IMG/VR virus record: IMGVR_UViG_3300022654_000689
From: a virus
Lineage: Duplodnaviria > Caudoviricetes
Length of the DNA stretch: 64,000 nt
Reading direction: 5' to 3' (one strand)
Shown: piece by piece, positions 933-64,000 of the stretch
How positions within the stretch are numbered: the stretch's first letter is position 1
Layout of the letters: each line of letters opens with the position of its first letter
Notes under the pieces: generated by a model
The model's database searches: none
Told to the model about the DNA's origin: nothing
The model's input: the letters and a program-made list of their open reading frames with translations, nothing else
Position numbers and translations under genes: made by a program

Positions 933-2752
933 ATGTCTATGTATCAATTAGTAAACACAATGCTTATTAATAAGAATAAGAATAATCCATCTACAAAGAT
1001 AGTATTTGTTAGAAAAGATAAAGATGGTAATAAAACGTTTCAATATGTAGAAGACGTTAAATTAAAGTATTATTATAATAAACCAGAATATATGGACATA
1101 GGAATGGTAAACTTTATAGAACCTGAAAAGGTTAATGGTAGAATATGTAGATATGACGATTTATATAAAGATATGGCTAGTGTAATGAATGGTAAACTAA
1201 AAAATTTCTATATTGAAGCTGTTAATAGTGGTGAAGGTGTATTTAGTAAATTAAGACGAATGCATTTGGATTATGGTTTTCATGGAACTGATAAGAATAT
1301 AGTTGACAGTTATATAACTGCATTCTATAAAAAGCATAATCCTGATGAAAACTTATTTGGTATAACTAAGGCCTTCATGGATATAGAGGTTGATGGTAGT
1401 GTAATAGTAGGTTTCCCAGAACCAAGTTTAGCAGAGGCACCAGTCAATGTTATAACATTAGTTTGTGATAATGGACATGTATATACATTATGTCTTAAGT
1501 ATGATACAGAAACTTATGAAAATTGTATGTCCCGACAAGAAGAATTAATAAATGATTTAAAAGAAAGATATAAAGACACTAAATGGGATTTTAAATTTAA
1601 GATAGAAGAATTTGATGATGAATTAGATTTAATCAAAAGATTCTTTTATATTGTTAATGAAATTGAAAGACCTGATTTTATGGCAGCATGGAATGCAACA
1701 TTCGACTACCAATATCTATATAATCGTATAATAAGATTAGATGCCGATCCTGCAACTGTATGCTGTCCAGAAGATTTAGAATATAAAGGAGTTCATATTA
1801 AGATAGATACGAAGAATAGCGACCCTTGTGATAAATCTGACTTATTTGAATTTAACGGCTATAGCGTGTATGTTGATCAGCTTGCTATATATGCTAACCT
1901 ACGTAAATCAGCTAAAGAAGAATCATATGCATTGGATTATATAGGCGGTAAATTATTAGGAATTCATAAAGATAAAGTTGAAGGAGATATCAAAACATTC
2001 CATTTTGTAGATTATAGAAAGTTCCTATTCTACAATATACAAGATGCTATCATGTTATTACAGATAGAAGAAAAGAATAAAGACTTCGATCTATTCCAAA
2101 AAGTTGCATCATTAACAGAAACTAGAGTGACACATGCATTAAAGAAAACTGTGTGTTTAAGAAATCTAGCTGATAAATTCTATAGAGATAAAGGATTAAT
2201 AATTAGTAATAACCGTAGTAAACTTTATGTTAAAGACGAATCATCTAAGATACGTGGTGCGTTAAACTAACAGGCGCACGTTAAAGCTCTTTAATTGCTG
2301 GGAACTCCTATATGGACAATCAGCAGCCTTGAAAAAAGGTTCAACGACTATCGAAACCGTTAATAAGGGAGTAGAGTACCGAAAGGGAAACAAGAGCCGT
2401 CAGAAATGGCGATGATATAGTCTGATCTGTATAGCAATATACAGTTAACACATATGTTGTTGGGGATCCAAATCATACAGCATTTAATGGTATGGAGATA
2501 GCAGGTCGAGTTAGTAAGTTCTTATATGAATCAGTAATAGATTTCGACTTAAGTTCTCTATATCCTTCAATAATACTTGCATTTAATATATCACCTGAGA
2601 CATGTATTGGTAAAGTTAAGATAGATAGTGATATAGGTAATGCTGAACAATTATTAAATGATTTTGCTTCTGGCGATGTAATAAACTTTGGTAAGAAATG
2701 GATGAATTTACCAGGTATAGAAGATATTCTTAATGAGATTGATAATATATAA
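933..2752 (+). CDS. Family B DNA polymerase subunit (3'-5' exonuclease + motif A) of a split polymerase; exons 933..2262 and 2457..2752, about 541 aa
   Basis: Exo motifs MDIEV, AWNATFD, YNIQD; spliced IRGAFVGDP; DFDLSSLYPS motif A; no motif B/C. Confidence 0.9.
2263..2456 (+). mobile_element. Group I intron, ORF-less, 194 nt, in DNA polymerase
   Basis: P1 gtgcgt/gcgcac with U.G; P3 gctctt/aagagc; AATTGCTGG...AATCAGCAG; P7 GACTA/TAGTC; terminal G2456; removal restores frame. Confidence 0.92.
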
Positions 2753-2786
2753 TAAACGTATAATGTATAATAGGAGGCTATAACTT

Positions 2787-3443
2787 ATGAATAAATTTAA
2801 TGTCGGAGATCAAGTAGTATGCAAGAGTTCACACTTCGCTTTTGCCATAGATATGGCAACTGGAAGTGTGTCAGTTAATGATTTCTTAGATATAGAATTA
2901 AATTCTGAAGGGATTTATAAAGGTGTAATACAAAGACCAGAAGATATAAATCCTAGTGGTGAAATGGCTCAACAATTTAAAGCAATAGCAAAACCTGAAT
3001 ATGAGGTAGTTGAAGTTTCTGGTAGAACATATGTAACTGATATGATTAGATGGGATACTTTTACAGAGTCTAAAATCGCAGATGACGAATATGAAAAAAT
3101 GATGGAAGACATATTAAAATCAACTCCAAAAAGTATAACTAAAAAACAATCAATGAATACACAAGCAGTTACAAAAGAAAAAGAAATTGTTAAGGAAATT
3201 ACAAAGCCTACAGTATATGATGAATTTAAGAAAAAGTATGAATTGCTTAAGAGATATCTTGGTATGATGGGAGTAAATGAAAATGATGCTAAAGAAGCTG
3301 TTGTTAAAGAGGAAGTAACAAAGATAACGGCTAAGTATTTAGAGATAGATAATCATAATGATTGTGCTGAATGTGTCAAATTAGTATTTAATATTATTGA
3401 TAATATTGATGAATTTATAAAAGATATAGAAAACCTTAATTAA
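2787..3443 (+). CDS. Hypothetical protein
   Basis: AGGAGG RBS, 218 aa ORF. Confidence 0.7.
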   Translation: MNKFNVGDQVVCKSSHFAFAIDMATGSVSVNDFLDIELNSEGIYKGVIQRPEDINPSGEMAQQFKAIAKPEYEVVEVSGRTYVTDMIRWDTFTESKIADDEYEKMMEDILKSTPKSITKKQSMNTQAVTKEKEIVKEITKPTVYDEFKKKYELLKRYLGMMGVNENDAKEAVVKEEVTKITAKYLEIDNHNDCAECVKLVFNIIDNIDEFIKDIENLN

Positions 3444-3479
3444 GGTTTTCTATATTAAAATTATTTGGAGGTGTAATGT

Positions 3480-3863
3480 ATGTATTATATAGAAGTTGTT
3501 GAAGATTTTAATTTATTCGATTTTGTAGATGAAAACGAAATTAACAAAAAAACATACATCGAGGATAATCTTTCAGATGTTGTAAAGCGTATTAGTAATA
3601 TTGTAATAGAAACCAACATACCTAAAAACGAAACTAAACAACTTCTTTTAAGCTCAAATGGGTATATGAATTTATTACACTCCGATGAATTAAGTGAACA
3701 ATACTTAGATGAGAGTATAAATCGAGCATTTCGCAATAATGATGATATTAAAGTAACATTGATGTCGACTGAAGATGAAGATGATTGTACCACATCATTA
3801 TCAACATATATGTATTCGATTTATATCAAGAACGAAAAAAGCTATGTAGAATCAATATTATAG
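3480..3863 (+). CDS. Small hypothetical protein, C-terminal-motif family
   Basis: GGAGG RBS; ends KSYVESIL. Confidence 0.7.
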   Translation: MYYIEVVEDFNLFDFVDENEINKKTYIEDNLSDVVKRISNIVIETNIPKNETKQLLLSSNGYMNLLHSDELSEQYLDESINRAFRNNDDIKVTLMSTEDEDDCTTSLSTYMYSIYIKNEKSYVESIL

Positions 3864-3873
3864 GAGGAATGAT

Positions 3874-4626
3874 ATGATTAATATAAGCGCTAAGTATTAT
3901 AACAAATGTGTTAAATTCTTTATAGACGTTATTAAAAAGTATAGAACTAATGATGAAGATATAGTTAGTATAGATGATGATGGAAATCTATATGTATATA
4001 ATTCAGAAACAGTACCAGAATATTATACAATGCATCCAATATATAGAAAATGGAAAAAAGATAATAAAAAACTTACGATTGCTGATGAAGAAGAAGTTAA
4101 AGCGGTTAACAATTTTATAGACAAATTTAAAAATTATGGATTAAAACCTATAGAAATTATAGAGATTGGTAAGAACTTAACTGGTAAAAATGTCACAAAC
4201 ATAATATTACGTGAAGACAAAATGACTATAACATTAGAAGATAAAATTGATAAGAAAAACCCAGGTAAATTATTAGGAAGTTATGATTTTGATATAAATT
4301 TATATGAAAAAGAAGCACCTAAGTATGACATGACTAATATAGAATGCGATAATTATAAAGAATACGAAGATGTATTAGCTACAGATATATTAGGAAAACG
4401 TTTACAAATTAAAGATGATGTGTTTATAGATATCTGGAAGGCTCACTTCATGGCATTTGACGCATTTACATTAGACACAGTATACTTATTAGAAGAAACG
4501 GAAGATACAGTGTTATTAATATTAGAAAGTAATCTTAAAGAAGAATTGATAGATAAGTCAAAATCGGGTAATACTTATTTTGACAACGTATATTGTTTTT
4601 ATCGTATAGCCAAATGTAGAGCCTAA
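3874..4626 (+). CDS. Hypothetical protein
   Basis: AGGAGG RBS, 250 aa ORF. Confidence 0.7.
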   Translation: MINISAKYYNKCVKFFIDVIKKYRTNDEDIVSIDDDGNLYVYNSETVPEYYTMHPIYRKWKKDNKKLTIADEEEVKAVNNFIDKFKNYGLKPIEIIEIGKNLTGKNVTNIILREDKMTITLEDKIDKKNPGKLLGSYDFDINLYEKEAPKYDMTNIECDNYKEYEDVLATDILGKRLQIKDDVFIDIWKAHFMAFDAFTLDTVYLLEETEDTVLLILESNLKEELIDKSKSGNTYFDNVYCFYRIAKCRA

Positions 4627-4661
4627 CCAGGCTCTATTTTTTTTATAAGGAGGGTACGTAA

Positions 4662-7061
4662 ATGGCGAGAAATAATAGCAAAAAGACTCAAAATGATATA
4701 GATAAGCTAGAACGCGATATAATGGGTATTTCTAAAAAAGATGCTAAATTAATATCTGACATAGAAACAATTAGTAAAATTATTGATGACAATAATGTTG
4801 AATTTGAAAAATATTTAGGAAAAGCACCTATTGAAATGCTTACAACACTAACTGCTGCTAAGAATTCAATAGAAAATCTTAATAGAATGAGGTTAGGAAC
4901 AAACAAAAAGAATTTATCAGGTAAAGCAATTCTTAATGATGTTATAAAATCATCTAAACTATCTAATTTATTTGAATTAGAGAAAAAACGTATGGATAGA
5001 TATGAAGACTATAAATTAGTTGAGTGCTATATACCTGAAATATCTTATTGTCTTGACCTTATAAGAGATAGTGTAGTTTCACCGGATGATGTAACTAAAG
5101 AATCTATACATATAGAATATCTTGATAAACCAATAGATGAAATAAGTTCAGATGAAGCTAAGAACTTTAGATTATTGGAAAAGAAATTTAAAATAGAAAC
5201 TATGTTTAATAATGCTATAAGAGATACTTTAATGCTAGGAGATCAATTTATAGCAACTATGAAATTTGACGATGAAATGAATGATATGTTAGCTAGACGT
5301 GTTAATGGTCAATTTCATAATTCGGTAATGATACATGAAGATGATAAAACTTTATTAAATGAAAATTTTGTTGATTTAGAAGACGAAGCATTAGAGTCAT
5401 TAGCTGAAGAATTCATAAATATACAACAGTATTTAAAGAAAGAAAATCGTTCTAAAGATAAAGAGTTTCAAGTAGTAGATGTTAAAAAGGGACTTAGAAA
5501 AAAAGTAGCAGATATAGTAAACGATAGATTTCAATTTGATGAAATGCCAATAACTGGATTCGTTGCTGATACTATGGTTGAATTAAACGATTTTAATAAA
5601 GCAAATGCTAGAATGAATAGTTCATTCCAACCAATCAAAATGGATGGAGCAGTTGTTAAAAAACTAGATCCTGCCAAAACTGTTAAGCTTTATTCAGATG
5701 GAGTATGTTATGGATATCTTTATATAGAAACTCAAGATGTTAATAGTACTAAATCTGGTAAGAAAAATCGTGAGGTTGCAGATGGAGTTCCCTTCCAAGA
5801 TATAATGGGACAGGCTACAGGAGATTTTTTCGCTAATAATTATGGTTCAATAGTTAAAAATGATACAATGAATAAAGATAAACTTATAGCAGATGTATTT
5901 GGTAAAGCGCTAGAACGTAAATTAGATCGTAAATTCATAACTAAGAATAAAGAGTTTAAAGAATACATATATCATTTATGTAAAACTAAAGAAATATTCA
6001 ATAGTAAAATTAAAATATCTTACTTTACTCCTGAAGAAGTTACTCATCTTTGTATAGGTATGAAAGAAGATGGTTATGGCACTTCAATATTGTCTAAATC
6101 ATTATTCTTTGCATTAATATACATAGCTACATTAATAACTGAATTAATGATAAAACTTTCTAGAAGTAAAGATAAAAGAGCTATATATGTTGATGTCGGT
6201 ATAGATAACGATATAGAAGGGGCTATACAAGAAGTTGTATCTGACATAAAATCTAAAGAAATACATATGTCAGATTTAGAAAGTATAAGCTCAATCAAAG
6301 ATGTGTGTTCTTCATTTGATGATTACTTTATACCAGTTATAGATGGAGAAGAACCTATAAGATTTGATAGTATACCAGGACAAGAAAGTGAAGTAGATGG
6401 AGAATTCCTTAAAGACTTATTAAGATCTATAATAACAGGTATGGGATTGCCATCTAACTTAGTTGATGCTACACAAGACGTAGATTTTGCTAGAACTCTT
6501 ATTCAACAAAATGCAAACTTTATAAAACGTATAGTTGTATTACAAAGAGAGCTTAGCGAACAACTTGGAGAGCTTATCAATAATTTATATACATGTGAAT
6601 ATAAATCTACATTAACTAAACTTAACAAAAGTAAAGGTAAAAAGAATAATGCTAAAATGACTGGATTTTCAGTTAACTTCCCAAGTCCTAATTACTTAGT
6701 AATGTCTAACTTAAATGAACAATTATCAACAGTAACTACTACTATAGATTTCATATTAGATACATATATAGATCAAAATACAATGGGAATGGATGAAAAC
6801 GAAGGTAAAAAAAGAGCATTATTTAAACGTGAAATAACTAAAGATTTAGTTACCAATCTTGATTGGAATAAATATGACGATATGCTTAAAAAAGTTGAAG
6901 GTGAAATGCGTTTAGATAAAGCTAAGCAAAGATTAATACCTGATGAAACAGCTGGCGGAGTAACAGATGAAGAACTACAAGGTATGATGGGAAATGACCA
7001 AGGCGGAGGAGACGATGGTTTAGGAGATTTAGGATCTGACGGACTTGATGGTGGATTTTAA
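4662..7061 (+). CDS. Portal protein (T4 gp20-like, jumbo-phage type)
   Basis: PEISYCLDLIRDSVVSPD, YGTSIL, KRAIYVDVG, DDYFIP, acidic Gly-rich tail resemble gp20-like portals. Confidence 0.8.
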   Translation: MARNNSKKTQNDIDKLERDIMGISKKDAKLISDIETISKIIDDNNVEFEKYLGKAPIEMLTTLTAAKNSIENLNRMRLGTNKKNLSGKAILNDVIKSSKLSNLFELEKKRMDRYEDYKLVECYIPEISYCLDLIRDSVVSPDDVTKESIHIEYLDKPIDEISSDEAKNFRLLEKKFKIETMFNNAIRDTLMLGDQFIATMKFDDEMNDMLARRVNGQFHNSVMIHEDDKTLLNENFVDLEDEALESLAEEFINIQQYLKKENRSKDKEFQVVDVKKGLRKKVADIVNDRFQFDEMPITGFVADTMVELNDFNKANARMNSSFQPIKMDGAVVKKLDPAKTVKLYSDGVCYGYLYIETQDVNSTKSGKKNREVADGVPFQDIMGQATGDFFANNYGSIVKNDTMNKDKLIADVFGKALERKLDRKFITKNKEFKEYIYHLCKTKEIFNSKIKISYFTPEEVTHLCIGMKEDGYGTSILSKSLFFALIYIATLITELMIKLSRSKDKRAIYVDVGIDNDIEGAIQEVVSDIKSKEIHMSDLESISSIKDVCSSFDDYFIPVIDGEEPIRFDSIPGQESEVDGEFLKDLLRSIITGMGLPSNLVDATQDVDFARTLIQQNANFIKRIVVLQRELSEQLGELINNLYTCEYKSTLTKLNKSKGKKNNAKMTGFSVNFPSPNYLVMSNLNEQLSTVTTTIDFILDTYIDQNTMGMDENEGKKRALFKREITKDLVTNLDWNKYDDMLKKVEGEMRLDKAKQRLIPDETAGGVTDEELQGMMGNDQGGGDDGLGDLGSDGLDGGF

Positions 7062-7107: not shown

Positions 7108-10100
7108 TTATTTCCAAGTAGTTGGTATACTTGCATAGTTAGTTAAATTAGTACATCCTGTAAAACAATTTGATTTAACTGCACTTGGATAAATATTCCA
7201 TACAGAAGGCGCAACCCCTGTAAGCGCAGAACAACCATTGAATGTTGATTGCATGTTAGAAATTCTAGGGTTTTTAGCTATAGTTAATAAAGTAGCACTA
7301 ATAGCAGTAAGTTTCTTACAATTATTGAATGCAAATGCCATATTTTCAAGTAATTGCATTCTAGAGAATAATGTGTTAGGTATTTCACCTTTAAGCTGTC
7401 CATTGTTATAGAATAAATAATCTATATTATTAATAAATGTATTATTTCTAAATAACCCACCTGGTATTTGACCTTCTAAATTAGTCATATAAGCAAAAGC
7501 CCAACCTACATCTGTTAGTGATAAATTATTAACAAAAATATCTTCCTCTACAAAATAAGGATTAACGTCTGTAAGCTCTGCTGAGTTTTTACCTAAACCA
7601 GTACAATATGCGAATATTGCTCTTATTGAAGTAGCAGCTTTACATTTCTTGAATAAATCAGTAGGAATTGGTCCAGTTAATGATGTACATCTTTGGAACA
7701 CTCCTCCTAAATTTGTAGTATTTACAAGATTTCTGAATATACCTTCAGGTATCATGCCTCTCATTCTATTACAATTATCAAACATACTTGATATATTAAG
7801 TATTGGAGAGTCTATTTCAACATAATCTTCAACATACTTAGATTTTTCAGTATCTTCAAGTGATTCATATGCAGATTTTGTAATAGGTGCTTCAGTTATA
7901 ATACGTTTCATTGTTTCAGTATTAATTTTGTAATATACTTTTTCTGCTGTTTTATTTAATATAGTAAATATATTTTCATCCAATTGTCCGTCAAAGTAAG
8001 TACATCCTTGGAATAACGATGAAACGTCTCCAAGTCTTACACAATCTTGGAACATGAATGGATGAAGTGTAAAGTTTATATTTTCACATCCACTGAACAT
8101 ACCAGCAATAGTTTCTAACATAGGTTTATTAGAGAAGAAATCTTCAGGTATATCTGTAGCAGTACCATCTTGTTTTCCTATACCGGTTCCTTGGAATACT
8201 CCATCAGCTTTTCTTATTTTAGAACAGTTTTTCCAGAAATCTGTCTTAATAGCTCCCGTTAAACCTTTACAGTTTGCAAATAAACTAGATATATCTGTAA
8301 CATTAGGGATATACGATAATAAATCCATTGGTATATCACCAGTTAATCTATCACAGTTTCCAAATGCATTACGTAAAATTGTAAGTTTTGAATTGTTTGC
8401 GAACAGTGTACCAGGTATAGAACCTGATATATTATTTATATATGAGTGTTCAGAATCTCCTATATCTCTTGCAAACATAGATTGAATAGTTGTAAGTTCT
8501 TTATTATTTGCAAATAGATTTGGAGGTATAGATCCTTCTAATTTTAAACAGTTATAGAACATTTCTTGTGTTGTAGTTAGCATTGGAAGATTTGCAAAGA
8601 AGTCGTTATCCAATGTAAATACGGCTTCTAATAATCCATAGAAACATCCATATAAACTTGTAATTTTAGGATTATTTCTAAATAATTTAGATGTTGGACC
8701 TTGAGTTATTCCAGTATTTGATGCAACGTAACCAAACAACCACGTTACTGTTGTAAGTTCTCCGTTATTTGCAAATAAATCATCAGGTATATTTCCACTA
8801 GCACCTTCTAAAGCGGCTGTTACCGTTTTTAGTTGTGTATTATTTGCAAAGAAGTCTGGTGGAACTTGTCCTGTCATTTTAATTCCTCTGAATGGATACT
8901 GTAGCGTTTTAATATTAGTTAATTTACTTAATAAATCAGATTCAAATTTACCACCGGTTATTTGAGCCCCACTAAATATATTATCTATAGTTTCACATGT
9001 TTCACCGAGACTTGCAAATATTGCTTTTACATTATCCCATTTTAATGATTGGCATGTATCAAAACTATGGTACATATATTTAACTTTAGATAAATCCATC
9101 TCAGGCAGTGTTACTAATTTAGTACAATTTGTAAATGTTTGACGCATATCACCTTTTACTACTAATTTTCCAGTAATTGATTTTAATTCTCTACATCCTT
9201 GGAATGTATAGTTTGCATTGTCTAGTTCCAAATTCATATTTCTTATTTCTTTTAAAGAAGTACAATTTTGGAATGACACGTTTGACATTGCAGGGAATCT
9301 TCCTAAGTCAAGATAAGTAGGTTTAGCTTCACTACCAAATTGTAATGATTGAATTCCTGATTCTGTAACTATTATACTACTTAATGAAGTTAAATTTTCA
9401 TTAAGACGAATATTATGGATATTAAATGATCCTCTTATATTTAACATTTCAAGAGATACAGAGTCTCTTAAATCAAGTTCTGTCATCTTAGTATTAGTTA
9501 AGTTAGCAGCATTTAATGATTTAAGATTTTCACAACCTCTTAACGATAATTCAGTTATGTGTCCGTTGTTAGATATATCTAAATTAGTTATTTTCGCACA
9601 ATTTTGTATTGTAAGTGATTCAAGTTTAGTATTCGTTATACTTAGATTGTAAAGTGCGTTACAGTCTTTTATTCTAACCGTTGCTAAGTCCGCGCAGTTA
9701 TCCATATAAATTGCATCAAGGAATTCTTGTTTATTACAGTCTAATATTGTAACTTTTGAACCGCTAAGATCAAAATATTCTAATGATCCCCCATTTTCAT
9801 TAAGAGCGACTTCACCTATTTGAGTGTTACTTAAATCTATATATTTAAGAGCTACGCACTCTGTTAAATTTATAGATTTATAGTTAGGGTTTGATCCTAA
9901 TAATGCACAATTCTTACAGTTAAGTTTTTGAAGCATTGTATTTTTACCAACTTCTAATTGGATTATACGTTTATTATCGGGTATGCTAAGTTCACATAGT
10001 TGTCTTGCACTACCAAGTAGTAATGATGACACATTAAGGAATTCTATACCATCAATATACATAACACCGTCTATACCTTTAATAGGCATATTATTGTCGA

Positions 10101-13100
10101 CAGCATTTTGTATTCGCCCCGTTACACTATACCATTGGTCTTTATTACAGAAGAATTTCTTTTTACCTTCAGCTTGGTCAGAGAATGATACCTGTATCCA
10201 TTGAGGTGATGCTGTTTTAAAGTTTAATGTATATTCTCCGTCTGGTACGTTAGAACGTATAACTGCAGAATTTTGCCATGTTCCATATTCATAAACGCTA
10301 TCAAGATAAACAAAACGTTCACTTACCCAACGTTTCATATGTTCAAGTCTCGATCCGTTAGACATGTATATCCATGCACTATTTTCTTCATTAACATATT
10401 TTATACGTTGATCTTCGTTATAGAATGTTTCTCCTATCTTATTAATTATTTCACTTTCAAAGAATTCCATTATTTTTTCATAAGAGAATATTCCATTAGA
10501 ACGTAAGTACATATATCTTTCAGCTATTTCATTTCCGAACATTTCTTTCAATTTAACCCATAAGTTAGATTGAGATGTATTGAAATCATCGAATTGCATA
10601 TCTATACCTGGTCCATATCTTAACTGACCGTCATTTGTAAGACCCAACATTGAGTCACACAGTTATGTTAATCTAGATATCTCTATCTAGCTCAGACTAT
10701 CGCACATCCCATATAGGGATTTGTCTCGTTTAGTCGTTCAGCGTGATTTAAGTTCATTAATAAATTGAATGACTAATTTTTCAATATTATCTTTTTCCCA
10801 ATAAGGTATTCTAAGTAAAGTTATATCGTTGTCTTTGCAATATTTATTTTTAATTTCGTCTCGTTGTTGTGTTATCTTTAATTGTTCTTTAGCATATTCT
10901 TCACCTTTACCTGCAAAATCTACAGGTTTGAAGTGTTGTTCTCCATCATATTCTATTGCAGCGTTTAATGTTTCAAGAAATACATCAAATCTAAAGTAAT
11001 TATTATCATCTACTTTTACAAAATATTCTTGTTTATGCGGAATGTTTTGTTCTACCAACACATCTGATAAAATTTTATTATTTTTACTATGAACACAACC
11101 ACATGAATATGTATAACCACCGGAAACCATACTTCCCACGATATTTTTAATAGTTCCACAATCACATTTACATTCGTATACATTTTTTCCATGTTCATTT
11201 AAACCAATTTTCTTTAATATTGTTAGTTTTCCAAATTTCATTCCAGTTATATCTTTTTCATGTTTTTCTCTTAACATTAATTTACGTTTACAACCGCAAT
11301 TTGTGCTTTTACCTTCAAAAATGTTATATGCTCTTACATTACTTATAGTTCCACAATCACATTTACACATAAAGTGTGAATCGTCAACAACTTTCAAAAT
11401 AGTCCAGCTTTCTATATGTTTACCAACATAATCTGCTAGATTATATTTAATTTTTTCACAACCACAAGATTTAATTTTATTTTCTTTTAGCTTTTGAGCT
11501 GGAACACTAGTTGTATTTCCGCACTCGCATTTGCAAATCCAATAAACTGGACTGCTAGAACGTAATCCTTTTCGTCTTTCTTCTCGTAATATTTTATTTT
11601 TTTCTTCATCTTTACTTAGAACTAATAATTTTCCAAATTTCATTCCTTTTTCTATCTTCATTTCGTAACCCCCTAATCTATGATATAATATTGTTAGGGT
11701 TTATTTATTAATTTTTAAATCTTCGCCCCTGTTGTCCATAAAGGAGTTCCAAGTCAATTAGAGACAATTTTTCCATATAATATTTCTATTATAGGCGACC
11801 ATTGTGTTAATCGTAAAACGATGGATACCAAATTGTATTACCTTCGGCGTTCTTACCAAATGTAGTAAGAACCATATTCTTACCAAAGTTATCTACAAGC
11901 CCGAAGCAATATACTATAAGATAATAGTCGATTAAATGTGTTACTGAAAAGTGTTCTTTTAATTCACTTCTAAATTCTTCAAGTGTACTATTTTTAACCC
12001 AAGATACTAAGTCTTGTAACTCTGAATGGTAACCTGCTTTAAGAACAGTGACAGCGTTATCTCCAGCACCTATAGTTTCACATACAACACTTTCATCCCC
12101 TGCATAGTGGAAACGGCTTTCAAATTCATTACGTATACTTTCCCAAGAATCATCAGCAAATGCCCCTGCTCCAGTTACCGAGTTAACTGCAATTTCATAA
12201 GACACTGCATTTTTTTCTCCTGTAAGACCCATATTATTATATGCATAACGGTCTATATTGAACATGTATATACCCATAGATTTTCCGTTAATTATTAATC
12301 TTACCGGGAAACCATCTATAGCAGATCTAGTAAGTGGATTCTTAATTTGTTGTGGGTACGGTGTATTAACTTTATTAAAGAACCAGTTAACATATCTTGC
12401 TGCTCCAACGTTGTTTGCTTGTGAAGAGTCCATAAAATTGGCCTTAAGCGTATATCGACTTTCTGGTATCCAATCATCTTTTGGAGCGTATTCCCAATTG
12501 TTACCTCCGTCTCTTAGTTTTATAGTGTAGTTTTTAACTGGGTACTCTAGTGATGAAGTACCTTGCCATGATACTTGACAACCTTCTTTACGGAAACGTT
12601 TACTAGGATCTAATGGGTCATCATAGTCTAGAGTAAGATTTTTAGCAACTTCTCCTGACATACCTTCCATTACACCTTCAAATTTTAAAGTAGGTATTGT
12701 GGAATCTCCGTAGTTTAGTTCTCTTTTTGCTAGTTGTTCATCTCTATCTTTTATGTCGGCTATAACATTTTGTAGAATTTCTTCATCAGTTAATGCGCAA
12801 TCATATATACGGAAATTTTTAATAGCACATTGTGCATAATGAGGTATCGGTCTTCCTTGTTCGTCAAGATTATCCTCAATCTCATCAAATGAAGCACCTA
12901 ATATAATTTTACCATCAAATGAGAATGGTTCTGTAGATGACATATACGCTGCTTTAGTTATAACACCATTTACGTACTGAATCATTATATTCTGGTCTCT
13001 GTCTATGACCCACGTCATACGTGTCCAAGTATCATCTTGGAATTGGCATTCAGTTATTTTGGAGTTTCTACTACGTAAACTACCTACTTGAGTATCTATA

Positions 13101-15221: not shown

Positions 15222-18200
15222 TTAATCCAATCTAGGTTTTGGATCTAATATTTCTTGCCCTTTAGATCTCCATGGTATTACTATTTCATCTACTAATTCT
15301 ACTTGCTGTGTTCCATAAGGCGCAACTACGTCGTTTTCATTAGCATCTTTTACAACTATTCCTTTTAATTGATAAGTTTTACAACTAAATTGATCATTGC
15401 TTATTTCTATCATCGCATAAGTTGGAGCTTGTGGATGATCACCAACGTATCCATACCACCAAGGTCTAGTTGCATTATTATTTACTTCTGGGTTATTAGT
15501 AACACCTTGTATTATTTCTTTACCAGATAATTTAAATCCAGCAGCTTGATTCATTATATAAGTTGTACCGTTATTCCAATCTGGTGCATGAGATATAGTA
15601 CCATGCCCTAAAGCAGTTTCTTCTTCAGCAGTAGCAACTCCTGTTGCATCGAAACCATCTTTTTTAGGATATCCATCATAACCAGAATATATAGGTATTG
15701 ATCTAGAATAAGTGTGGTTATGTCCACAAAGTACTACATGAACTCTATGTTTTTCAAATACCGGTATAAATCTTTGTAACCATAGCGGTCTTATTATAGT
15801 GAATGGAGATAAATGCATATATACAACTGTCCATTTAGTTTTATCATTATCTTCGTCTTTAGTTAGATCTGCATCTAACCATTCACATTCTTTTTGTATC
15901 CATCCATCTACATTAGTTGGATCACCTGTAGCTAATTCCATCATTCTCTTATCTTTATTGTTAGAGTTTAAGCTTACAAAATGAACTGGTCCAAGATCCC
16001 AAGAATAAGCAGAAATATATGGAGATTTATCTTCGCCTTCTGGTAAGAAATGGTCTTCAGCAGTCATATAGTAAGTAAATGGTTTTGAATCTGTTTTGTC
16101 AGCAAGATCGTTGTTGCCGCAAGTTATCATGTGACAACAGTTTCTTGTAGATTCAAGTGAATATTGGAAGTAACCTCTCCATTCAAATGATCTATTAGCA
16201 TTTTGAGAAATATCGTGTATTGTCGATTACACCGCTAAGTAATCACTGTATATTTCTATACAGACTAGACTATATCATGATCTTATTAAAGATCTTCTCC
16301 ACTGTCCTTCTGCGGATTTTGAAGGAACTTAGTCGTTGAACGTCTCTCTTTTAATGTTTTATCTAAAATATTTGAAATATTATCATAATCGTAATAAGGA
16401 ATTCTTAATAGGAATATATTAGAGTCTTCACAAAACTTAGTTTTTGCTTTGTCTCGTTCTTTAATTTCATTAAATTCTTCATCAGTCATTCCAAATTTTT
16501 TCTGAAAATGTTGTTCCCCATCAAACTCTATTAATAGATTTAATGATTCTACAAAAAAATCAAATGGCAAAGTATACTTATATTTACAATTTTCAAATCT
16601 TTTTTGTCTTTCGTATTGTAAATTCGATTTATCAAGAATTTCGCATATTTTCTTTTCACCTTTTGATTCTTTTTCGCAATTACAACCTCTTCCTTTTTGG
16701 AAATTTATATAAGTTGAGCTGTATGGATTTCCATGAGGACATATCATATCCAAATGATCACTGTTTCTCACATACGTTTGTGATAGAAGTTTATAACCTC
16801 TTTTTTCTATAACTGTTTTAACGTCATTATAGTCAAGCCTTTGGCTAATATTATGAATCTTATTATCACATAATTTACATTTACTTCCAGCTTTTATACT
16901 GTCAGGTGTCATTTTTATTTCATGACCCTTGTCGCAAATTATATCAAGTTTCTTTTTAGAACCTAACCATTTATTAGATACTAATTCATAATTATTGCTA
17001 TCTAAGATTTTTTTAACTTCATTTAATCTTTCTTCATCTTTACAATGAGGACATCTTCTATTGTTACGTATATTAGAAATAGTAGTATTCCATGTATGAC
17101 CTTTATCACAAATTATATCAAGTTTAGTGTTTTGATCAATATAATCATCTTCATTTCTAAAGCTATATCCTATCTTTTTCAAATATTCTTTATTACTATT
17201 AATCGCATTTATTCTTCTAGATTCTAAATTATTTATTTTTCTACCCATTCTCAACACCTCTAATTACTTGTTGAGCTATTTTTAACATTAAAAAAGATTT
17301 CGCTGCTGATTTGCCATTGCACTAGTACTTAGGTTTTAACCTTATACCATCTAACCTATTTTTTCTGCTTTCGCCGCATTCGCATTTAGGATTTAACCTT
17401 GTGCTGTAGCTAGGTTAGCTTTAGGCTCTTCCAGCAATTCAAAGAATTTGCTATAATTATTTCTAATTATAGGGAGAAATTTCTCCAGTATTTAGATGCC
17501 AATCCCATCCTTCTGGTTCTTGTTCTACTATATTTTGATAGTTAACTTTCCATGCTTGATATTGTTCTGTAGTCCATCCTTGTTGGTCTGAAGTCCATAA
17601 TATTCTCATAACGTCATCAGCGCCATAAGTTTTTACTTTAAATGTAGCTATATCTGACCACATACCTTCAGTACCACATTGATATTCGTATTCACCTGGT
17701 TCTAAGTCTCTTATTATAGCTCTATGTATAGTAGCCTCTGTATCAAAATGAGATACTATTTCTCTTTGAGTTTCTACAGTAACCCATTTATTAGTATTAA
17801 CTAATCTATATCTTACCCAACCTTCGTCCATAACTGGTGTTTGATAAGTAAATGTACGAGTTTTTTCTCCATCTTTACCATAACATATATTAACTAAGTT
17901 AGGAACATTTTCTTTTAATTTAAGTTTATCAAAGTATATATCCCATTTTCCATCTTTTAAACTTCTTGGTCTGTAAGTTTCAACATCACAAGTTCTAAAG
18001 TCTAATGCTCTAGCTGCAGTTTGATTGTTTTCAGGTTGATCTTTAAAAGCAAAATCAGCAGCACTTTGACAGAAATCAAGTCTACGTATACCTATATCTT
18101 TACTCATTAATTGACCATATCTATATTCATATGCTTGAACTTTTTTGTCAGTAGTAAGTCCTCCTGCAGCTAGCATATCTATATAACCAATAGCTTTATT

Positions 18201-23157: not shown

Positions 23158-23169
23158 AACAATGAATTA
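23158..23169 (+). promoter_or_regulatory. Late promoter AACA-N6-TA
   Basis: AACAatgaatTA upstream of RNAP gene start 23204. Confidence 0.6.
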
Positions 23170-23203
23170 TTATGTTACGATAAAAAAATTAAGGAGGGCT
23201 ATT

Positions 23204-24914
<1,711 letters not shown>

Positions 24915-31521: not shown

Positions 31522-31749
31522 TACTTTGTAATTTTATTTTATTTCCTTAATTTTAATATTTAATTTGTAATATTTAATTATTAATTTCAAATATATATTA
31601 TTACTTTGTAGCAGAGTGTATGAACAAATTGTTACCTATAATTTTACGCGTATTATTACATCAAATTTTAATTAAATTAGTGAGTGGAGGTATATAGTAT
31701 GATGGAGTACAATAATAAAACTAATAATACCATGGGAGGGAATACAATT

Positions 31750-34700
31750 ATGTTTAACTATGATGAACTTACTAAAAAGATAAACGAGATAATGAATTTA
31801 CAGAATATAGAGAATGCTAACGCTAATGTAGACGAAGCTAGTTTCTCAGGTAAGAATGAAAAAGCTGCTGGATTATTACTTAAAGATTATGCACTTGACA
31901 ATTTGATTGATCCTAAGATAGCTCAATATCATAGAGATGGAATATTATACACTCATGATCTAGACAGATATGCATCAGGTATGCATAATTGTCTTATAGT
32001 AGATTTTACAGATTTATTTGAAAACAATGGAGGATTTGCAACTAGAAATGGAGACGTAAGAAAGCCAAATGGTATACAAGCATTTTTTCAATTAGTAGCA
32101 GTGGTATTCCAATGCGCATCGCAATGCCAATTTGGGGGGATAGGCTCAGCTAAAATTGATTATGAAGCAGCTCCATATGTTGCTAAAACATTTACTAAAA
32201 AGTATAAAGAAGCATTAATGGATTTATATGATCTAACATCAGAAGAAGCAAAAATTACTATGAAAAGAATAGAAGAAATTGGCATAGAGATAAGATTAGG
32301 AAATGAAAAATTAATAGAACATAACGAAAGATTATATAAGATAACTAAGAGACATGTAGAAGAAAGCGTTAAACAAGGAGCTGAAAGTTTATATCATAAT
32401 CTTAATACACTTGAATCTAGACCAGGTCAAAAAACTTGTTTCTAAAGTTTTCACTTTCAATATAACAAATGTATATTATAGTATAGAATGTACAATATAT
32501 ATTGAAAGGATGATTATAATGAAAAAGAAAAATCTTGAATTTACTGATGAGATAATAAAATTGTATAAAGAGGGTCTTAGTTGTGAAGCAATATCTAAAC
32601 ATTTTGAAAAGAAATTTAGTGCAACACATGTACGAAATGTATTAAAAGATAATAACGTCCCAATGCGTACAAAAGGTGGTTGTACTGTAATAGACGAATC
32701 TATTTTAATAGATATGTATGTAAATCAAAAAATGAGTTTACAAGATATTGCTGATAAAACTGGTAGAAAGAGTTTAGAAAGTATAAGACAAATCATGATT
32801 AAAAACAATATACCTCTTAGAAACAGAGCAGCTCTTTCTAAAAAAGATACAACACTAAATGAAGATTTCTTTGAAATGATTGATACTGAATTTAAAGCTT
32901 ATATACTTGGATTTTTAATAACAGATGGAAATGTATCTGAAAGAACTAATAGTCAACCAAGAATAAGAATACAAATTCATGATAAAGATGAATATATATT
33001 AGAAGAATTTAAAAAACAATTAAATTCATCCAATAAAATTAATCATTTCAATGAAGATAGACGAAAAAATCATGTAGAATTATGTGTTCATTCACAAAAA
33101 ATGTTCGATGATTTGTCAAAGTATGGTGTTGTACCTAATAAGACTTGGAATACTTATTTGCCTGATAATATACCTAATGATCTTATATCACATCTTATAA
33201 GAGGTATAATGGATGGTGATGGATGGATAGCTAAAAAAGATGCATTTATAGGATTTATTGGAACTAATAAGTTAATGCATCAAATTAAAGATCAAATTCA
33301 ATCTGAACTATCAATAGAAGGTAAGATATGTATTAAAAATGATGATACTGAACTATCAGAATTATGGTATGCTGATAATAATAGTAAAGAACTTATGTAT
33401 CATTATTTGTACGATAATGCAAATTATTATCTCGTTAGAAAAAAAGATAATCTTGAAAACTTTTTGAAAGACAAGGGCCTACTAGACTAGGAATAGTCTA
33501 GTGTAATCGGGCAATATCGGTGAAGGCTAAGTCTCATAAGAGATATGCTAATACCGAGATAAGTATGAGAACTAAAGCGCTCATACCATCGTAACGCGTA
33601 GTAGGTGAACCTCGAAAGAGAATATAATCCTACCAAGAGTGTCCGACACATCATTCTGAAATGAGTGATCGCTTAGGAGATTGGTCCTTAAGTGCCAAAA
33701 TGGGTGAAAATGTACGCTGAGCTGGATCGGAATTGACCGGTCGTATACAGTTATATAAATGGGTGACTGTAGATGAGTGAAAACTCCAGAAGATTTGGAT
33801 AAAAAGCCAAATCGATAACACAACTGTCTCAAGTTCCATTTACAAGTATAAACTTTGGTACTGATACTAGTGCTGAAGGTAGATTGGTTACAAAAGCATT
33901 ATTAGAAGCATCAATAGATGGTATTGGTAGATATCACAGAACAAGTATATTCCCAATATCTATATTTAAACATAAAAAAGGTGTTAATGATAAACCAGGA
34001 ACACCTAACTATGATTTATTGCAACTAGCAATAAAATCGTTAACTAAGCGTATATATCCAAACATAGTTAATGTCGATGCTGATATATGGGCTAATCCAA
34101 GTTGTCCTGAAGAAGAAGGGGTAACAATGGGTTGTAGAACTATGTTAGGAAAAGATAGACATGGATTAATAGGTCCAGGCGGTAGAGGAAATCTAGCTCC
34201 AGTAACTATGAATTTAGTATATCTTGGTATTAAAAATGGTATATGTTTAGGTGAAAGAGAAGTTCCAGATGTAAACGGATTCTTTAGAGATTTAGAAGCT
34301 TTAATGTTAGATGCAGAAAAAGCTTTATTAGATAGATATGAATGGGTATGTAGTCAAAAAGCAAGATCTGGACATTTTAGTTACGCTAATGGTATAATTA
34401 AGAATACATTAGGTAGAAAGTTAAAACCAGATGAAGAAGTTAGAGAATGTATGAAACATGAAACTTTAGCAATAGGATATATAGGAATAGCTGAATGCTG
34501 TAAAGCATTATTTGGACATACTCATGCTAAGAATAAAGAAGCATATGATTTTGCATTAAAAGTAGTAACAAGAATAAATGCATTTACTAAAGAAGCTGCA
34601 GAACGTAATGATCTTAACTTCTCTTGTTATGCAACACCTAAACAGTTGGGTCTTTAGCTTGAAAGGGCTATCGAATAACCTCGTTAAACGGGCTGAACGT

Positions 34701-36140
34701 AATAAGTTGGTAAGAAAGGCTAAACCTTTTTTAAAGGCAAGCTAACCCCGTAGGAAAGAATTTGAGTTTGTAAACGCCATATAACATATTTTTATAAATT
34801 ACGCAACCCTAAGAAAGGATATGATAATATGGCAAGAAGAAAGTATGTTACTATAAGTATAGAAGAAGTTGGTGAAGATATAAAATTAATTAATATCGAA
34901 GGAAATTCAGATTATTATATAAGTAAAAATGGCAATGTATATAGAGAAATGGAACCGGGAAGATTTTACAAGATGTCCTTAGATATTAATAAAGTTGGGT
35001 ATAATTACATTGGATTAAAGCTAAATGGGAAAACTGTAAAAAGACGAGTTCATAGGCTTGTTGCATTAACGTGGATACCAAATCCTAATCCATCAATCAA
35101 TACGATAGTTGGTCATAAAGATAATAATAAACGTAATAATTGTGTTGAAAATTTATATTGGACTACTATATCAGAAAACACTCAAAAAGCATTTGATGAT
35201 GGATTAATAGAAAATGTAAAAAGTTTTGATGATTCACAATCTCATACAATTATGGTTTATGATCTTAATATGAATCTAATTGAAGTTTGTGGTTCGTCAA
35301 AAGAAGTCGATCGCAAGTACAAAGTTTCCCATACAACTGTAATGAGACAGTGCCAAGGCAAATTTAAAGGAAAACCAAGATGCGGTTATATTTTTAAATT
35401 TTTAGGATGGAACGATCCAACTTCACCAAATTTTGAAACAAACTCAAAGGAAAATCTCTAACGATCATCGAAACCAATAAATGTAACCGACTTTATTAAT
35501 AAAGTTGGAATAAGGTATACAATTTGTATACACGAAGGGAGTAGAGTAGGCTTTATTGCCGAAAAGCGAGGGTGCCAGTAGTGATATTGGTACGTGATAT
35601 GATCTAAACCCCTAATGAAGTATCGGGAAACCGAGGGTTCAATTGGCTGAAAATTTATGTCATACATTAGCTAAAACATTAAAATCTCAATTTGGTGTGT
35701 TAGAAGGAATAACAGATAGAGATTATATAACTAACTCTCACCATGTTCCAGTATATGAAAAAGTATCAATATTTAGAAAACTTGAATTAGAAGCTCCATT
35801 TGCTAAACTTGCTAATGGTGGTTATATAGCATATGTAGAATTAGAATCTACTGTAGTTAAAAATCAAGAAGCTATAGCTAAGATAATTAAGTATGCTATG
35901 GACTTAGGAGTAACTTATTTAGCATTTAATTTCCCAATAGACACATGTTTATCTTGCGGATATTCAGGAGAGATAGATCAAGACGAGTGTCCTATGTGTA
36001 AATCTGATAAGATAGAAAGACTAAGACGAGTTACAGGATACTTAACTACAGATTATCATAAATTTAATAAAGGTAAAATTTCAGAAGTACATGATAGAGT
36101 AAAACATAGCAAGTATACAGATGATGAAGAATTATTTTAA
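31750..36140 (+). CDS. nrdD: Anaerobic (class III) ribonucleotide reductase; exons 31750..32427, 33827..34639, 35646..36140, about 661 aa
   Basis: YTHDLD, HNC, SRPG|SQVPFTSINFG, MGCRT, YATP|AENLC, YITNS, CLSCG...CPMC, RRVTGY. Confidence 0.95.
32428..33826 (+). mobile_element. Group I intron nrdD-I1 (1399 nt) with LAGLIDADG ORF upstream of the core (P1 loop)
   Basis: AATATCGGTGAA...ATACCGAG; P7 variant GCGTA/TACGC; ends taacacaactG. Confidence 0.88.
32519..33490 (+). CDS. Double-motif LAGLIDADG homing endonuclease with N-terminal HTH repeats
   Basis: AYILGFLITDG and HLIRGIMDGDG; GAAAGGA RBS before ATG 32519. Confidence 0.88.
   Translation: MKKKNLEFTDEIIKLYKEGLSCEAISKHFEKKFSATHVRNVLKDNNVPMRTKGGCTVIDESILIDMYVNQKMSLQDIADKTGRKSLESIRQIMIKNNIPLRNRAALSKKDTTLNEDFFEMIDTEFKAYILGFLITDGNVSERTNSQPRIRIQIHDKDEYILEEFKKQLNSSNKINHFNEDRRKNHVELCVHSQKMFDDLSKYGVVPNKTWNTYLPDNIPNDLISHLIRGIMDGDGWIAKKDAFIGFIGTNKLMHQIKDQIQSELSIEGKICIKNDDTELSELWYADNNSKELMYHYLYDNANYYLVRKKDNLENFLKDKGLLD
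34640..35645 (+). mobile_element. Group I intron nrdD-I2 (1006 nt) with HNH endonuclease
   Basis: P1 acct/gggt; P7 variant GATCA/TGATC; terminal G35645; removal restores YATPAENLC. Confidence 0.9.
34829..35461 (+). CDS. HNH homing endonuclease (I-HmuI-like)
   Basis: YYISKNGNV, RVHRLVALTWIPNP, VGHKDNNKRNNCVENLYW..ENTQKA. Confidence 0.88.
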   Translation: MARRKYVTISIEEVGEDIKLINIEGNSDYYISKNGNVYREMEPGRFYKMSLDINKVGYNYIGLKLNGKTVKRRVHRLVALTWIPNPNPSINTIVGHKDNNKRNNCVENLYWTTISENTQKAFDDGLIENVKSFDDSQSHTIMVYDLNMNLIEVCGSSKEVDRKYKVSHTTVMRQCQGKFKGKPRCGYIFKFLGWNDPTSPNFETNSKENL

Positions 36141-60048: not shown

Positions 60049-60174
60049 AAAATACCTCCTAAAATTATAAATTTATGTTACATAAGTTTTAAAAATTTTA
60101 ATCTAAATAAATAACTACTGCAGCACAAATTAAAATTATGAATATTGATAATATTGAATTCATAAACAACCCTC

Positions 60175-60393: not shown

Positions 60394-60450
60394 AAATATA
60401 ATACCCCCTTATATTTTTCTCATATTTATAATATATTACTAAAAATTTAA

Positions 60451-60870
60451 TTAAAAATTATTTATTATAATTTCACCGTCTACAATTTTAAGATATACAT
60501 GCATTTCATCAGGAGTGCCAATTCTGAATTCAAGTTTTTTCATAATTCCTTCTTTATCTAAAACTTTTCTCCATGCGTCAGATGCATTCAATAATGAGTC
60601 TACTACATTATCCCATTCTTCTTCAGCTATATTATCAAATTTATCTTCAGTAAAATGTACGTGTATTACGAATCTATCTTCCTCTTCAACAGTACTCATT
60701 TCTACATCTCTTAAAGCAGTTCCTGTAAATGCATGCATTAGAGAACCTTCCGCTTCTTGATATAATTCTTCTAGAGTGGGTTCATGTAATAAATTGTATC
60801 CTATAACACCGCCAACAGCCATAAATATAATGCATAATAATGCTACTAATGATTTTAATCTATTTTTCAT
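60451..60870 (-). CDS. Membrane-anchored hypothetical protein
   Basis: N-terminal TM helix. Confidence 0.65.
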   Translation of the reverse strand: MKNRLKSLVALLCIIFMAVGGVIGYNLLHEPTLEELYQEAEGSLMHAFTGTALRDVEMSTVEEEDRFVIHVHFTEDKFDNIAEEEWDNVVDSLLNASDAWRKVLDKEGIMKKLEFRIGTPDEMHVYLKIVDGEIIINNF

Positions 60871-60871
60871 A

Positions 60872-62362: not shown

Positions 62363-62372
62363 TATATCACTC

Positions 62373-62963
62373 CTAGTTATCAGTAGGATGTTGTTTTTCA
62401 GCCATTACTTTATTATATGATTCCACTATACCTTCTATTGAGTTTTGTTCATAACCAACTTCCTCCCAACAATCTCTTCTAACAGATGGTATTGAAGCCG
62501 CTTCAATTAAATCCATGCTTTCTTCACATCTTCCGGGAAAATCTTCAGGTTGAGAAGCTCTTTGTTTTACCATTTGAACAATACGTTTTCTTGTAGGTTC
62601 GTACATAGCTAATGCTTTTTTAGCGCCTGCAACTTCTTCCGGTTCCAATATTCTAGCTACATTAACTGCTGCTTGAGCTTTAAATAATATTTCTACCATA
62701 AGCTCATATACGCCTTCAAAAGAATATTCTTCTCTTAAACAATGGGCTGCATGTTCTAATGCTCTTTTATATTCATTTGGTAAATTTTTTAATTCATTAC
62801 GAAGTTCACTTCTAGCTTTTATAGCTCCTTCTCTTTTTCTAGCTGCTTTTTTGTCTTTAAATTTTTTAAATAAACCTTCTTGGTATATGTAATCTTCTAA
62901 TAAAGACATTAATTCTCTATCTATATTCAATTTATTCATCTCCTTTAAACTTATAGCTTTCAT
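62373..62963 (-). CDS. Probable head-internal protein
   Basis: LLEDYIYQEGLFKKFK, similar to FNEGLFRRKK in 27980..30547. Confidence 0.55.
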   Translation of the reverse strand: MKAISLKEMNKLNIDRELMSLLEDYIYQEGLFKKFKDKKAARKREGAIKARSELRNELKNLPNEYKRALEHAAHCLREEYSFEGVYELMVEILFKAQAAVNVARILEPEEVAGAKKALAMYEPTRKRIVQMVKQRASQPEDFPGRCEESMDLIEAASIPSVRRDCWEEVGYEQNSIEGIVESYNKVMAEKQHPTDN

Positions 62964-63201
62964 CTAATAAATCATTATCAATACCAGCACCTAATAAATA
63001 TGTACTTATTGTGTTAACAGTTTGATTTTGGGTAATATCTTTATAAGGTTCTAAATCTTTAAGTGAGCAATAACCATATGTAGCTATTTGTGAATAAAGT
63101 CTTTGCTTAGTAGTCCCATCAGCTCTAGGTCCAAGAAATTCTTCAAGAGCATGATCCAATCCAACAGCTGTCATAACATATGTTTCTGAGTCAGATATTC
63201 T
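62932..63201 (-). CDS. Final exon of RNA polymerase beta-like C-terminal subunit
   Basis: RISDSE...LEEFLGPRAD corresponds to bacterial beta RFGEME...LQEMLTVKSD. Confidence 0.7.
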   Translation of the reverse strand, partial: RISDSETYVMTAVGLDHALEEFLGPRADGTTKQRLYSQIATYGYCSLKDLEPYKDITQNQTVNTISTYLLGAGIDNDLLDESYKFKGDE

Positions 63202-64000
63202 CATAAATGTTTTAATATGATTCGCTACATCATATCACACTATATATTTCTATATAGATCAGACTATATCTTAACTATTTCTAGTTTGCCATATTTCCAT
63301 TCGCTTGAATGTACTCTACTCCCTTATTAACGGTTTCGATAGTCGTTGAACTACTTACTATTTTTTCTATATATGATTCAAGATTTTTAAAACAATCATG
63401 GTGAATTCTAAAAAGTTTTATATTATTAACTTCACAATATTCATTTTTCATTTTGTCATGTAATTTCAATCTCTCAAATGATTCGTCTGTATAATAAGAA
63501 TCTTTTTCAAAATGCTGCTTTCCATCATACTCTATTAAATATTTTAATGAGTCGTTTTCGTTTAATATTGCAAAGTCATATCTAAGCTTATAATTGCTAT
63601 TAACGGAACTTACTAAATTATCAAAAGTATATTCTCTTTGATACTTTATACACATATCCTCTAATTTTTTGGCTATTCGTGTCTCTGCGATACTATTATC
63701 TTTGCAATAAGGACACCTTCTTCCTCTCCTAAACATATTAGGTGTCACTAAATATGTGTTATTACATATTTTATGAGTTACTTCCATTTTTTCATCGATT
63801 CCAATATAATCTCCTAATATATAATCATTTAAATCTGAAAAATGTGATATTGTTTCCATATATTCTTCTTTAGTATTACGTTTTTTATCCCCTCGTATAT
63901 CATTAGCACATTTAGGGCATCTTTTACCATTTTTGAAATTATTATAAGTTACAGGATATTCAGTTCCACACTTATTGTGTTTTATATTAATATGTGTATC
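63202..64000 (-). mobile_element. Group I intron (5' part outside window) with endonuclease
   Basis: TTCAACGACTATCGAAACCGTTAATAAGGGAGTAGAGTAC...GATATAGTCT; terminal G63202. Confidence 0.85.
63281..64000 (-). CDS. Intron-encoded endonuclease (zinc ribbons plus Vsr/DUF559-like domain), 5'-truncated
   Basis: HxxC...RCPxC repeats; LRYDF...IEYDGKQHF...HD..KN. Confidence 0.8.
   Translation of the reverse strand, partial: DTHINIKHNKCGTEYPVTYNNFKNGKRCPKCANDIRGDKKRNTKEEYMETISHFSDLNDYILGDYIGIDEKMEVTHKICNNTYLVTPNMFRRGRRCPYCKDNSIAETRIAKKLEDMCIKYQREYTFDNLVSSVNSNYKLRYDFAILNENDSLKYLIEYDGKQHFEKDSYYTDESFERLKLHDKMKNEYCEVNNIKLFRIHHDCFKNLESYIEKIVSSSTTIETVNKGVEYIQANGNMAN

Follow-up and report, generated by a model that had tools for sequence, protein, structure and literature searches.

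The closest described counterparts of the introns treated here are those of the Bacillus jumbo phage AR9 (Takahashivirus), whose GenBank record (KU878088) annotates 19 introns in eight genes: two in gyrA, two in g078, one in the prohead protease gene, four in terL, two and five in the genes for the β′ and β subunits of the virion RNA polymerase (RNAP), respectively, two in the virion protein gene g205, and one in the β′ gene of the non-virion RNAP. Twelve of the 19 are within 89–153 kb, that is, within one 64-kb span. By family, 16 are of type A as judged by profile matches, two are of type C, and one is a group II intron (PMC12350094). The Jug jumbo phages of the gut carry 18.5 group I introns per genome with an average length of ~206 nt, located in terL, nrdD, and DNA polymerase genes and accompanied by HNH and LAGLIDADG endonucleases; their splicing was confirmed by metatranscriptome reads (PMC12363816). 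Here we describe nine group I introns, designated I1 to I9, in a 64,000-nt stretch of Caudoviricetes DNA (IMG/VR record IMGVR_UViG_3300022654_000689; hereafter the window). They are very probably selfish mobile elements that must self-splice for their host genes to work.

The best matches of the TerL, portal, tail sheath, capsid, family B DNA polymerase (polB), and RNAP pieces encoded in the window are to phage AR9/PBS1 at 37–62% amino acid identity (46% between the two TerL proteins), placing both phages in the same lineage. The introns of AR9 and the window include the same type-A family (the 16 AR9 copies match a shared profile), and type C is present in gyrA of AR9. Both phages have Vsr-type and HNH intron endonucleases, and the invaded gene classes terL, prohead protease, and virion RNAP subunits are common to the two. 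The I7 site is within 1 nt of the second terL intron of AR9, and the g078 site matches at the protein level. In contrast, polB and the CotH-LRR, metallophosphoesterase, and nrdD genes are invaded in the window; homologues of the last three are missing from AR9, in which the polB gene (g132) runs uninterrupted through the I1 site. The protease and RNAP β′ introns of AR9 occupy other codons, the group I intron of AR9 g145 being located 12 nt away, at DYD↓GD (arrows denote splice junctions). Moreover, AR9 has four terL introns compared with one in the window, and g145 contains a group II intron, a class of which none was seen in the window. The Jug and crAss-like phages also resemble the window in having many small introns in terL, nrdD, and polymerase genes and HNH or LAGLIDADG endonucleases, whereas the Jug phages are of another lineage with Bacteroides hosts, and their likeness to the window introns is one of description (PMC12363816).

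Intron loads of this size in these genes are already known, and the window holds no new kind of system. It widens the list of genes invaded by AR9-type intron families by polB, CotH, phosphoesterase, and nrdD. An earlier note on this DNA was correct in that AR9 has several introns. Its description of the nine introns as an unusually broad and dense invasion does not survive comparison with the 12 introns per 64-kb span in AR9 and the load of the Jug phages (PMC12363816), and its premise that phage group I introns are mainly found in nucleotide-metabolism and replication genes is dated.

The intron boundaries were determined from the restored reading frame and motif, agreement with uninterrupted homologues, and a terminal intron G. 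In all nine introns, the last base is G, and no other boundary would restore the frame supported by homologues. In the eight introns that are complete in the window, a stop codon appears in the upstream frame 0–10 codons past the 5′ splice site, which agrees with the statement in the earlier note that this frame closes soon after the site. The nine coordinates given there proved to be exact intron ends (5′ ends on plus-strand genes and 3′ ends on minus-strand genes), and the motifs that it predicted are restored at all nine junctions. Seven of the junctions read uninterrupted in homologues from AR9, phage G, phiR1-37, T4, and metagenomic proteins; for the other two, SLG↓GDYDGD and ↓RISD, the support consists of AR9 exon alignments only. 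Of seven junctions for which the flanking ±10 residues were compared with the whole protein, six exceed its average conservation, the exception being polB. The placement of the introns in or next to conserved motifs, as formerly claimed, holds but is weak for polB. Insertion at conserved or catalytic residues is an expected behavior of homing elements (PMC12908238). Simple gene fragmentation was rejected as an account of the interruptions. If the nine junctions were overlooked, annotation would yield only fragments of polB, the 2101-amino-acid CotH-LRR protein, the metallophosphoesterase, the RNAP subunit, NrdD, TerL, and the prohead protease.

I1 (2263–2456, plus strand, 194 nt) lacks an open reading frame (ORF), is assigned to type A, and interrupts the N-terminal polB gene (exons 933–2262 and 2457–2752). 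AR9 g132 is contiguous across GA↓FV of the resulting junction GA↓FVGDP. Motif A (DFDLSSLYPS) follows ~29 residues farther on, and the residues around the junction are no better conserved than the protein average. The gene (933–2752) is confined to the exonuclease domain and the first part of the palm, up to and including motif A, and the catalytic remainder is outside the window. The family B DNA polymerase is split into two separate genes in AR9 as well (g132 and g152). I2 (11809 to 10660, minus strand, 1150 nt; type B) is in the CotH-LRR gene (exons 14563–11810 and 10659–7108). The junction IWYPSFYD↓CD(S/T) is ungapped in the uninterrupted homologues P0029, P0032, and P0042, and the window product reads FYD↓CDS. 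Exon 1 has a Pfam match to CotH; at the start of exon 2 Pfam detected no CotH continuation, and the junction was validated with the uninterrupted homologues instead. I3 (17482 to 16214, minus strand, 1269 nt), which is assigned to type A and has a long P5 insert, separates the metallophosphoesterase exons 18878–17483 and 16213–15222. The joined sequence NTG↓DISQNANRSFEW (NTG↓DISQ) matches INTGDIAQNANRPFEW of phage G gp352, which is metallophosphoesterase motif II. I4 (24527–24731, plus strand, 205 nt; ORF-less, type A) is in the gene for the N-terminal part of virion RNAP β′ (exons 23162–24526 and 24732–24914), where exon 1 ends with NSLG and exon 2 opens with GDYDGD.

The nrdD gene, which encodes an anaerobic ribonucleotide reductase, is divided into three exons on the plus strand (31684–32427, 33827–34639, and 35646–36140) by I5 (32428–33826, 1399 nt; type C) and I6 (34640–35645, 1006 nt), the latter placed directly before AENLC. 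The I5 junction SRPG↓SQVPF restores a conserved NrdD block and matches T4 NrdD, while the I6 junction ATP↓AENLC corresponds to T4 NrdD residues 443–449. An intein was considered for the nrdD inserts and rejected on the grounds that the frame changes, a stop codon occurs six codons past each 5′ junction, and the internal ORFs have their own starts. The T4 sunY intron is likewise a group I intron in an anaerobic ribonucleotide reductase gene, but its junction (AYE↓YEVNTL) is ~12 codons upstream of I5 and its endonuclease (I-TevII) is of the GIY-YIG type, compared with LAGLIDADG and HNH in the window. The rV5-like coliphage vB_EcoM_TH18 has a three-piece nrdD in which the position corresponding to I6 is occupied by a homologue of the 5′ half of that intron. 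In this Escherichia phage (L015, 626–3273), nrdD is annotated as three coding sequences with the ORF-less intron in the second gap, and the introns are unannotated in the record. DNA polymerase introns of SPO1/Bastille-type Herelleviridae are ~86% identical to the 3′ end of I6 and share an HNH endonuclease with it, although their host gene encodes a family A DNA polymerase rather than NrdD (PMC11878797).

On the minus strand, I7 (48073 to 47845, 229 nt; ORF-less, type A) separates the terL exons 48714–48074 and 47844–46440 and splits the Ile codon that precedes the Walker B residues DE, giving LIW↓IDEF. Ten uninterrupted full-length TerL relatives and phiR1-37 read P(I/L)IW↓(I/F)DEFSF across this Walker B junction. 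An alternative terL junction after GGGGAU was rejected because it breaks Walker B, and the AR9 micro-exon and phiR1-37 extend exon 1 to PLIW. I8 (51210 to 51025, minus strand, 186 nt; ORF-less, type B) is in the prohead protease gene (exons 51870–51211 and 51024–50698), and AR9 g114 is contiguous across TYD↓WV of the junction TYD↓WVLF. I9 (minus strand, 3′ part of a type-A intron) runs from beyond position 64000, where its 5′ end lies outside the window, to 63202. It precedes the last exon (63201–62932) of an RNAP subunit gene resembling AR9 g078. RISD are the first residues of this exon, whose alignment to AR9 g078 starts at position 64073, immediately after the first g078 intron of that phage. 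The earlier note had named the gene RNAP β; assignment to a g078-like RNAP subunit stands, and the β label rests only on a match to the loosely named phrog_3233 (“RNA polymerase beta subunit”). A search of the PDB with the last exon gave no match.

A search with Infernal and the Rfam group I model RF00028, as the earlier note had proposed, gave scores above the gathering cut-off for I4 (89 bits, E-value of 2e-21) and I1 (67.9 bits, full length). A gathering-mode scan of the whole 64-kb window returned no hits, though these introns score 68–89 bits against a cut-off of 50, because the speed filters dropped both; they are recovered when the search is run in E-value mode or restricted to short stretches. 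An empty result from a gathering-mode scan of AT-rich phage DNA should not be taken to mean that group I introns are absent. An nhmmer profile was prepared from an alignment of three compact window introns and seven AR9 introns. The alignment has a long invariant core and a consensus fold with P3, P4, P5, P6, P8, and P9, in which 22 of 39 base pairs show compensatory changes. The profile matches I4 (168 bits), I7 (156 bits), I1 (138 bits), I9 (65.8 bits at 63351–63239), both halves of I3 and of I2, the 5′ half of I8, and part of I6 (E-value of 0.003). Since the E-values at the claimed sites range from 1e-51 to 1e-5 and nothing significant was found elsewhere (nothing else with E < 5 in 64 kb on both strands), chance is excluded for these sites.

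The two nrdD introns were connected to other families. The I5 core (33500–33826, ~330 nt) is 72–75% identical to RNAs in two split genes with the same ORF-then-core layout, recD in Bacillus phage PJN02 and gyrA in phiR1-37, and it also matches both annotated AR9 gyrA introns. A type-C fold derived from six sequences has the topology P3/P4/P5/P6/P7.1/P8/P9 with 30 of 48 pairs compensated, and in I5 the R and S elements resemble those found in type A. In I6, the 3′ end shows ~86% identity to introns of the Herelleviridae DNA polymerase type, such as the BSP10 intron with its HNH endonuclease, the 5′ half shows 73% identity to an intron of rV5-like coliphages in which nrdD is in three pieces, and the helices P3, P7, P8, and P9 together with a U·G-containing P1 were read by eye. 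The P7 helix GACUAU/AUAGUC is compensated to GAUCAU/AUGAUC in I6 and GCGUA/UACGC in I5. A canonical P1 with U·G is present in six of the eight complete introns (I1, I2, I4, I6, I7, and I8), for example GUGCGU/GCGCAC in I1, ACUCGGU/GCUGAGU in I4, ACCU/GGGU in I6, and CGAU/GUCG in I8. Group II introns were rejected: the whole-window Rfam search found no group II family at E ≤ 10, and no intron 5′ end begins with GUGYG.

Taken together, these results identify the nine elements as genuine group I introns that fall into at least three lineages. Judged by their sequences, those in polB, phosphoesterase, RNAP β′, terL, and the g078-like gene are assigned to type A, those in CotH and protease to the compact type B, and the first nrdD intron to type C, while the second nrdD intron appears to be SPO1/Herelleviridae-like. 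The nine introns that the earlier note had reported are in this way substantiated by terminal G, homologue junctions, and the combined Rfam, nhmmer, and covariation results. I8 (186 nt) and I1 (194 nt) have no ORF and a complete core; both are shorter than the 205-nt Azoarcus intron, to which the record for the smallest group I intron able to self-splice is usually credited.

Intact ORFs for putative endonucleases were found in five of the nine introns, three of the Vsr/DUF2726 type, one LAGLIDADG, and one HNH. The I2 ORF (10738–11661, minus strand, 307 amino acids) is of the Vsr/DUF2726 type, matches the endonuclease families phrog_374, phrog_559, phrog_9084, and phrog_7140, and has tblastn matches to AR9 g147 and g079, annotated as “group I intron VSR homing endonuclease”. 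The I3 ORF (16286–17257, minus strand, 323 amino acids) combines a zinc finger with a Vsr-type nuclease (Pfam DUF4379; phrog_559, 3e-62) and is a homologue of AR9 g147. The I5 ORF (32519–33490, plus strand, 323 amino acids) matches Pfam LAGLIDADG_3 (2.4e-8), a helix-turn-helix domain, and the endonuclease family phrog_4645 (7e-54). The I6 ORF (34829–35461, plus strand, 210 amino acids) matches Pfam HNH_3 and phrog_59 (5e-35) and is similar to AR9 g271, an HNH homing endonuclease. The I9 ORF (63281–64000, minus strand) is open at the window end, has at least 239 amino acids, and is of the Vsr/CapR type (phrog_559, 6e-48). It shows weak Pfam matches to CapR, DUF4379, and DUF2726 and is 34% identical to AR9 g079 (“homing endonuclease, group I intron VSR”). 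A zinc-finger/CapR/Vsr-type endonuclease family has been described for AR9-like introns (PMC12350094), and three of the five window ORFs belong to it.

Comparison with a relative contig (ENA ERZ27303906 k141_1536950, designated L017), which is ~88% identical to the window, provided evidence on both selection and turnover of the introns. The L017 polB is intron-less, and its DNA is identical to the predicted ligated exons, lacking exactly 2263–2456 (194 nt). Its CotH intron (10425–10609) is ~185 nt long, has no endonuclease ORF, and is 94% identical to I8. The counterpart of I3 has 448 nt with an internally deleted endonuclease ORF. Two introns are present only in L017, one in the phosphoesterase gene (DQQG↓W, 4218–5161) with a 185-amino-acid ORF and one of 311 nt in CotH (NFG↓KN, 10042–10352). 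Intron or endonuclease content thus differs at five loci within 20 kb, and these differences fit selfish turnover with homing gain and loss. The pair is a clean natural example of rapid gain and loss of introns and endonucleases. Between the same two phages, the exon downstream of I2 has a ratio of nonsynonymous to synonymous substitution rates (dN/dS) of 0.06 with dS of ~0.5 and no stops, and the exon downstream of I3, intact in both phages, has a dN/dS of 0.098 with dS of 0.50 and no stops. These exons are under purifying selection and are therefore translated, which requires accurate intron removal. The 5′ and 3′ parts of I2 are 89–91% identical to I8, and their host genes are unrelated. 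Both introns were inserted at the same TTACGAT↓TG context, matching the guide sequence GUCG. The I2/I8 pattern would fit spread either through reverse splicing or through an endonuclease whose target is short.

Several points weigh against the interpretation of the nine elements as self-splicing selfish introns. We infer splicing from the DNA, and selfishness is compatible with benefit to the phage. The full-length RF00028 alignment of I8 has a score of 24.4 bits (E-value of 2e-4), which is below the Rfam gathering score, and this single model finds neither I5 nor I6. For I5, P1 with U·G was not placed, as no U·G register occurs in the first 130 nt. In addition, I3 is without the canonical U·G at the 5′ splice site. 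Restoring the GD motif and ending on G requires a cut after GGAG (GGAG↓A...ACACG↓AU), so that the last exon base before I3 is a G paired with C in the hairpin GGAGA/UCUCC (window 17482–17483 and 16213–16214, minus strand). The extra phosphoesterase intron of L017 (4217–5162) keeps the frame only as G↓...G↓ or U↓...C↓. I3 is nevertheless judged to be functional, since the exon downstream is under purifying selection.

A mechanism can be proposed from the properties of the intron family. Each pre-mRNA would fold into a P3–P9 ribozyme core, an external guanosine would attack the 5′ splice site in P1, and the freed exon would then attack after the terminal intron G to restore the reading frame. 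The endonucleases of the five ORF-containing introns would cut intron-less alleles during co-infection, and repair would copy the intron in; the four ORF-less mini-introns may be copies that have no endonuclease, being remnants of the homing cycle or elements mobilized in trans. Conserved and catalytic codons may be occupied because, as endonuclease targets, they vary least and allow no loss other than a precise one.

This proposal is compatible with a use of I2, I3, I5, I6, and I9 as weapons, by which the phage would benefit from cutting intron-less essential genes of co-infecting relatives. The RNAP intron of PhiPA3 acts against PhiKZ in phage–phage competition (PMC12908238), and this precedent favors such a role, as do the essential nature of the target genes and the co-existence in metagenomes of close relatives with intron-less or endonuclease-less alleles. 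However, four of the nine introns have no endonuclease, and marker exclusion without fitness gain is the commoner finding. We consider a benefit of this kind possible but rather unlikely.

The earlier note had argued that replication, transcription, packaging, head maturation, and tail appendages all depend on splicing, which could act as a shared checkpoint. Dependence of the first four functions on splicing is upheld, while the designation of CotH-LRR as a tail appendage is unsupported. In its general form, the introns would be more than parasites, and splicing would be a common gate that ties late development to the GTP or translation state of the host through eight genes for DNA synthesis, virion and early transcription, packaging, and capsid maturation, each of which needs a guanosine-dependent ribozyme step; in a narrower version, the G–C site of I3 would represent a naturally occurring departure from the usual recognition of the 5′ splice site. 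We regard this proposal as highly improbable. The checkpoint proper, in which the introns would be retained because they place replication, transcription, packaging, and head maturation under common control by guanosine, Mg, or translation state and thereby synchronize or gate the infection cycle, is a shade less credible again. Translation and the growth state of the host affect how T4 introns are spliced in vivo, which counts for a checkpoint, and all eight complete introns block translation unless spliced. A tuned checkpoint should, however, be conserved, whereas the window and L017 differ at the five loci described above, including an intron-less polB. The introns are also of at least three unrelated lineages shared with unrelated phages, five carry homing endonucleases, and the same pattern in AR9 and the Jug phages is explained by homing. 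The checkpoint is without support, and the differences from L017 agree with the selfish turnover of mobile introns. Least probable of all is that some introns are dead and their host genes pseudogenes, with the phosphoesterase gene as the main candidate: the cleavage of I3 after a G–C pair needed to restore the metal-binding GD motif and the lack of Rfam matches for I5 and I6 speak for it, but the exon past I3 is intact and constrained in both phages, all exons are open with conserved motifs restored, and the I5 and I6 cores are conserved, covarying, and common to introns of other phages.

The source of the window is an uncultured AR9/PBS1-like jumbo phage. A fragment of its TerL is present on dozens of metagenome contigs, the longest of which has 330,661 bp, so that the phage is recurrent and has ~330 kb. 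A scan of IMG/VR with the capsid protein found no relative. The CotH protein has relatives from Romboutsia and Clostridium, and nrdD encodes an anaerobic ribonucleotide reductase as described above; the host is therefore likely to be among the anaerobic Firmicutes. Megablast against 50,697 deposited phages revealed no close DNA relative of the window, the sole match being 60 nt inside an intron. In Staphylococcus epidermidis myophages (BE06 and relatives), unannotated DNA matches a 60-nt stretch in the P5 insert of I3 (17314–17373) at 90% identity and presumably represents related introns.

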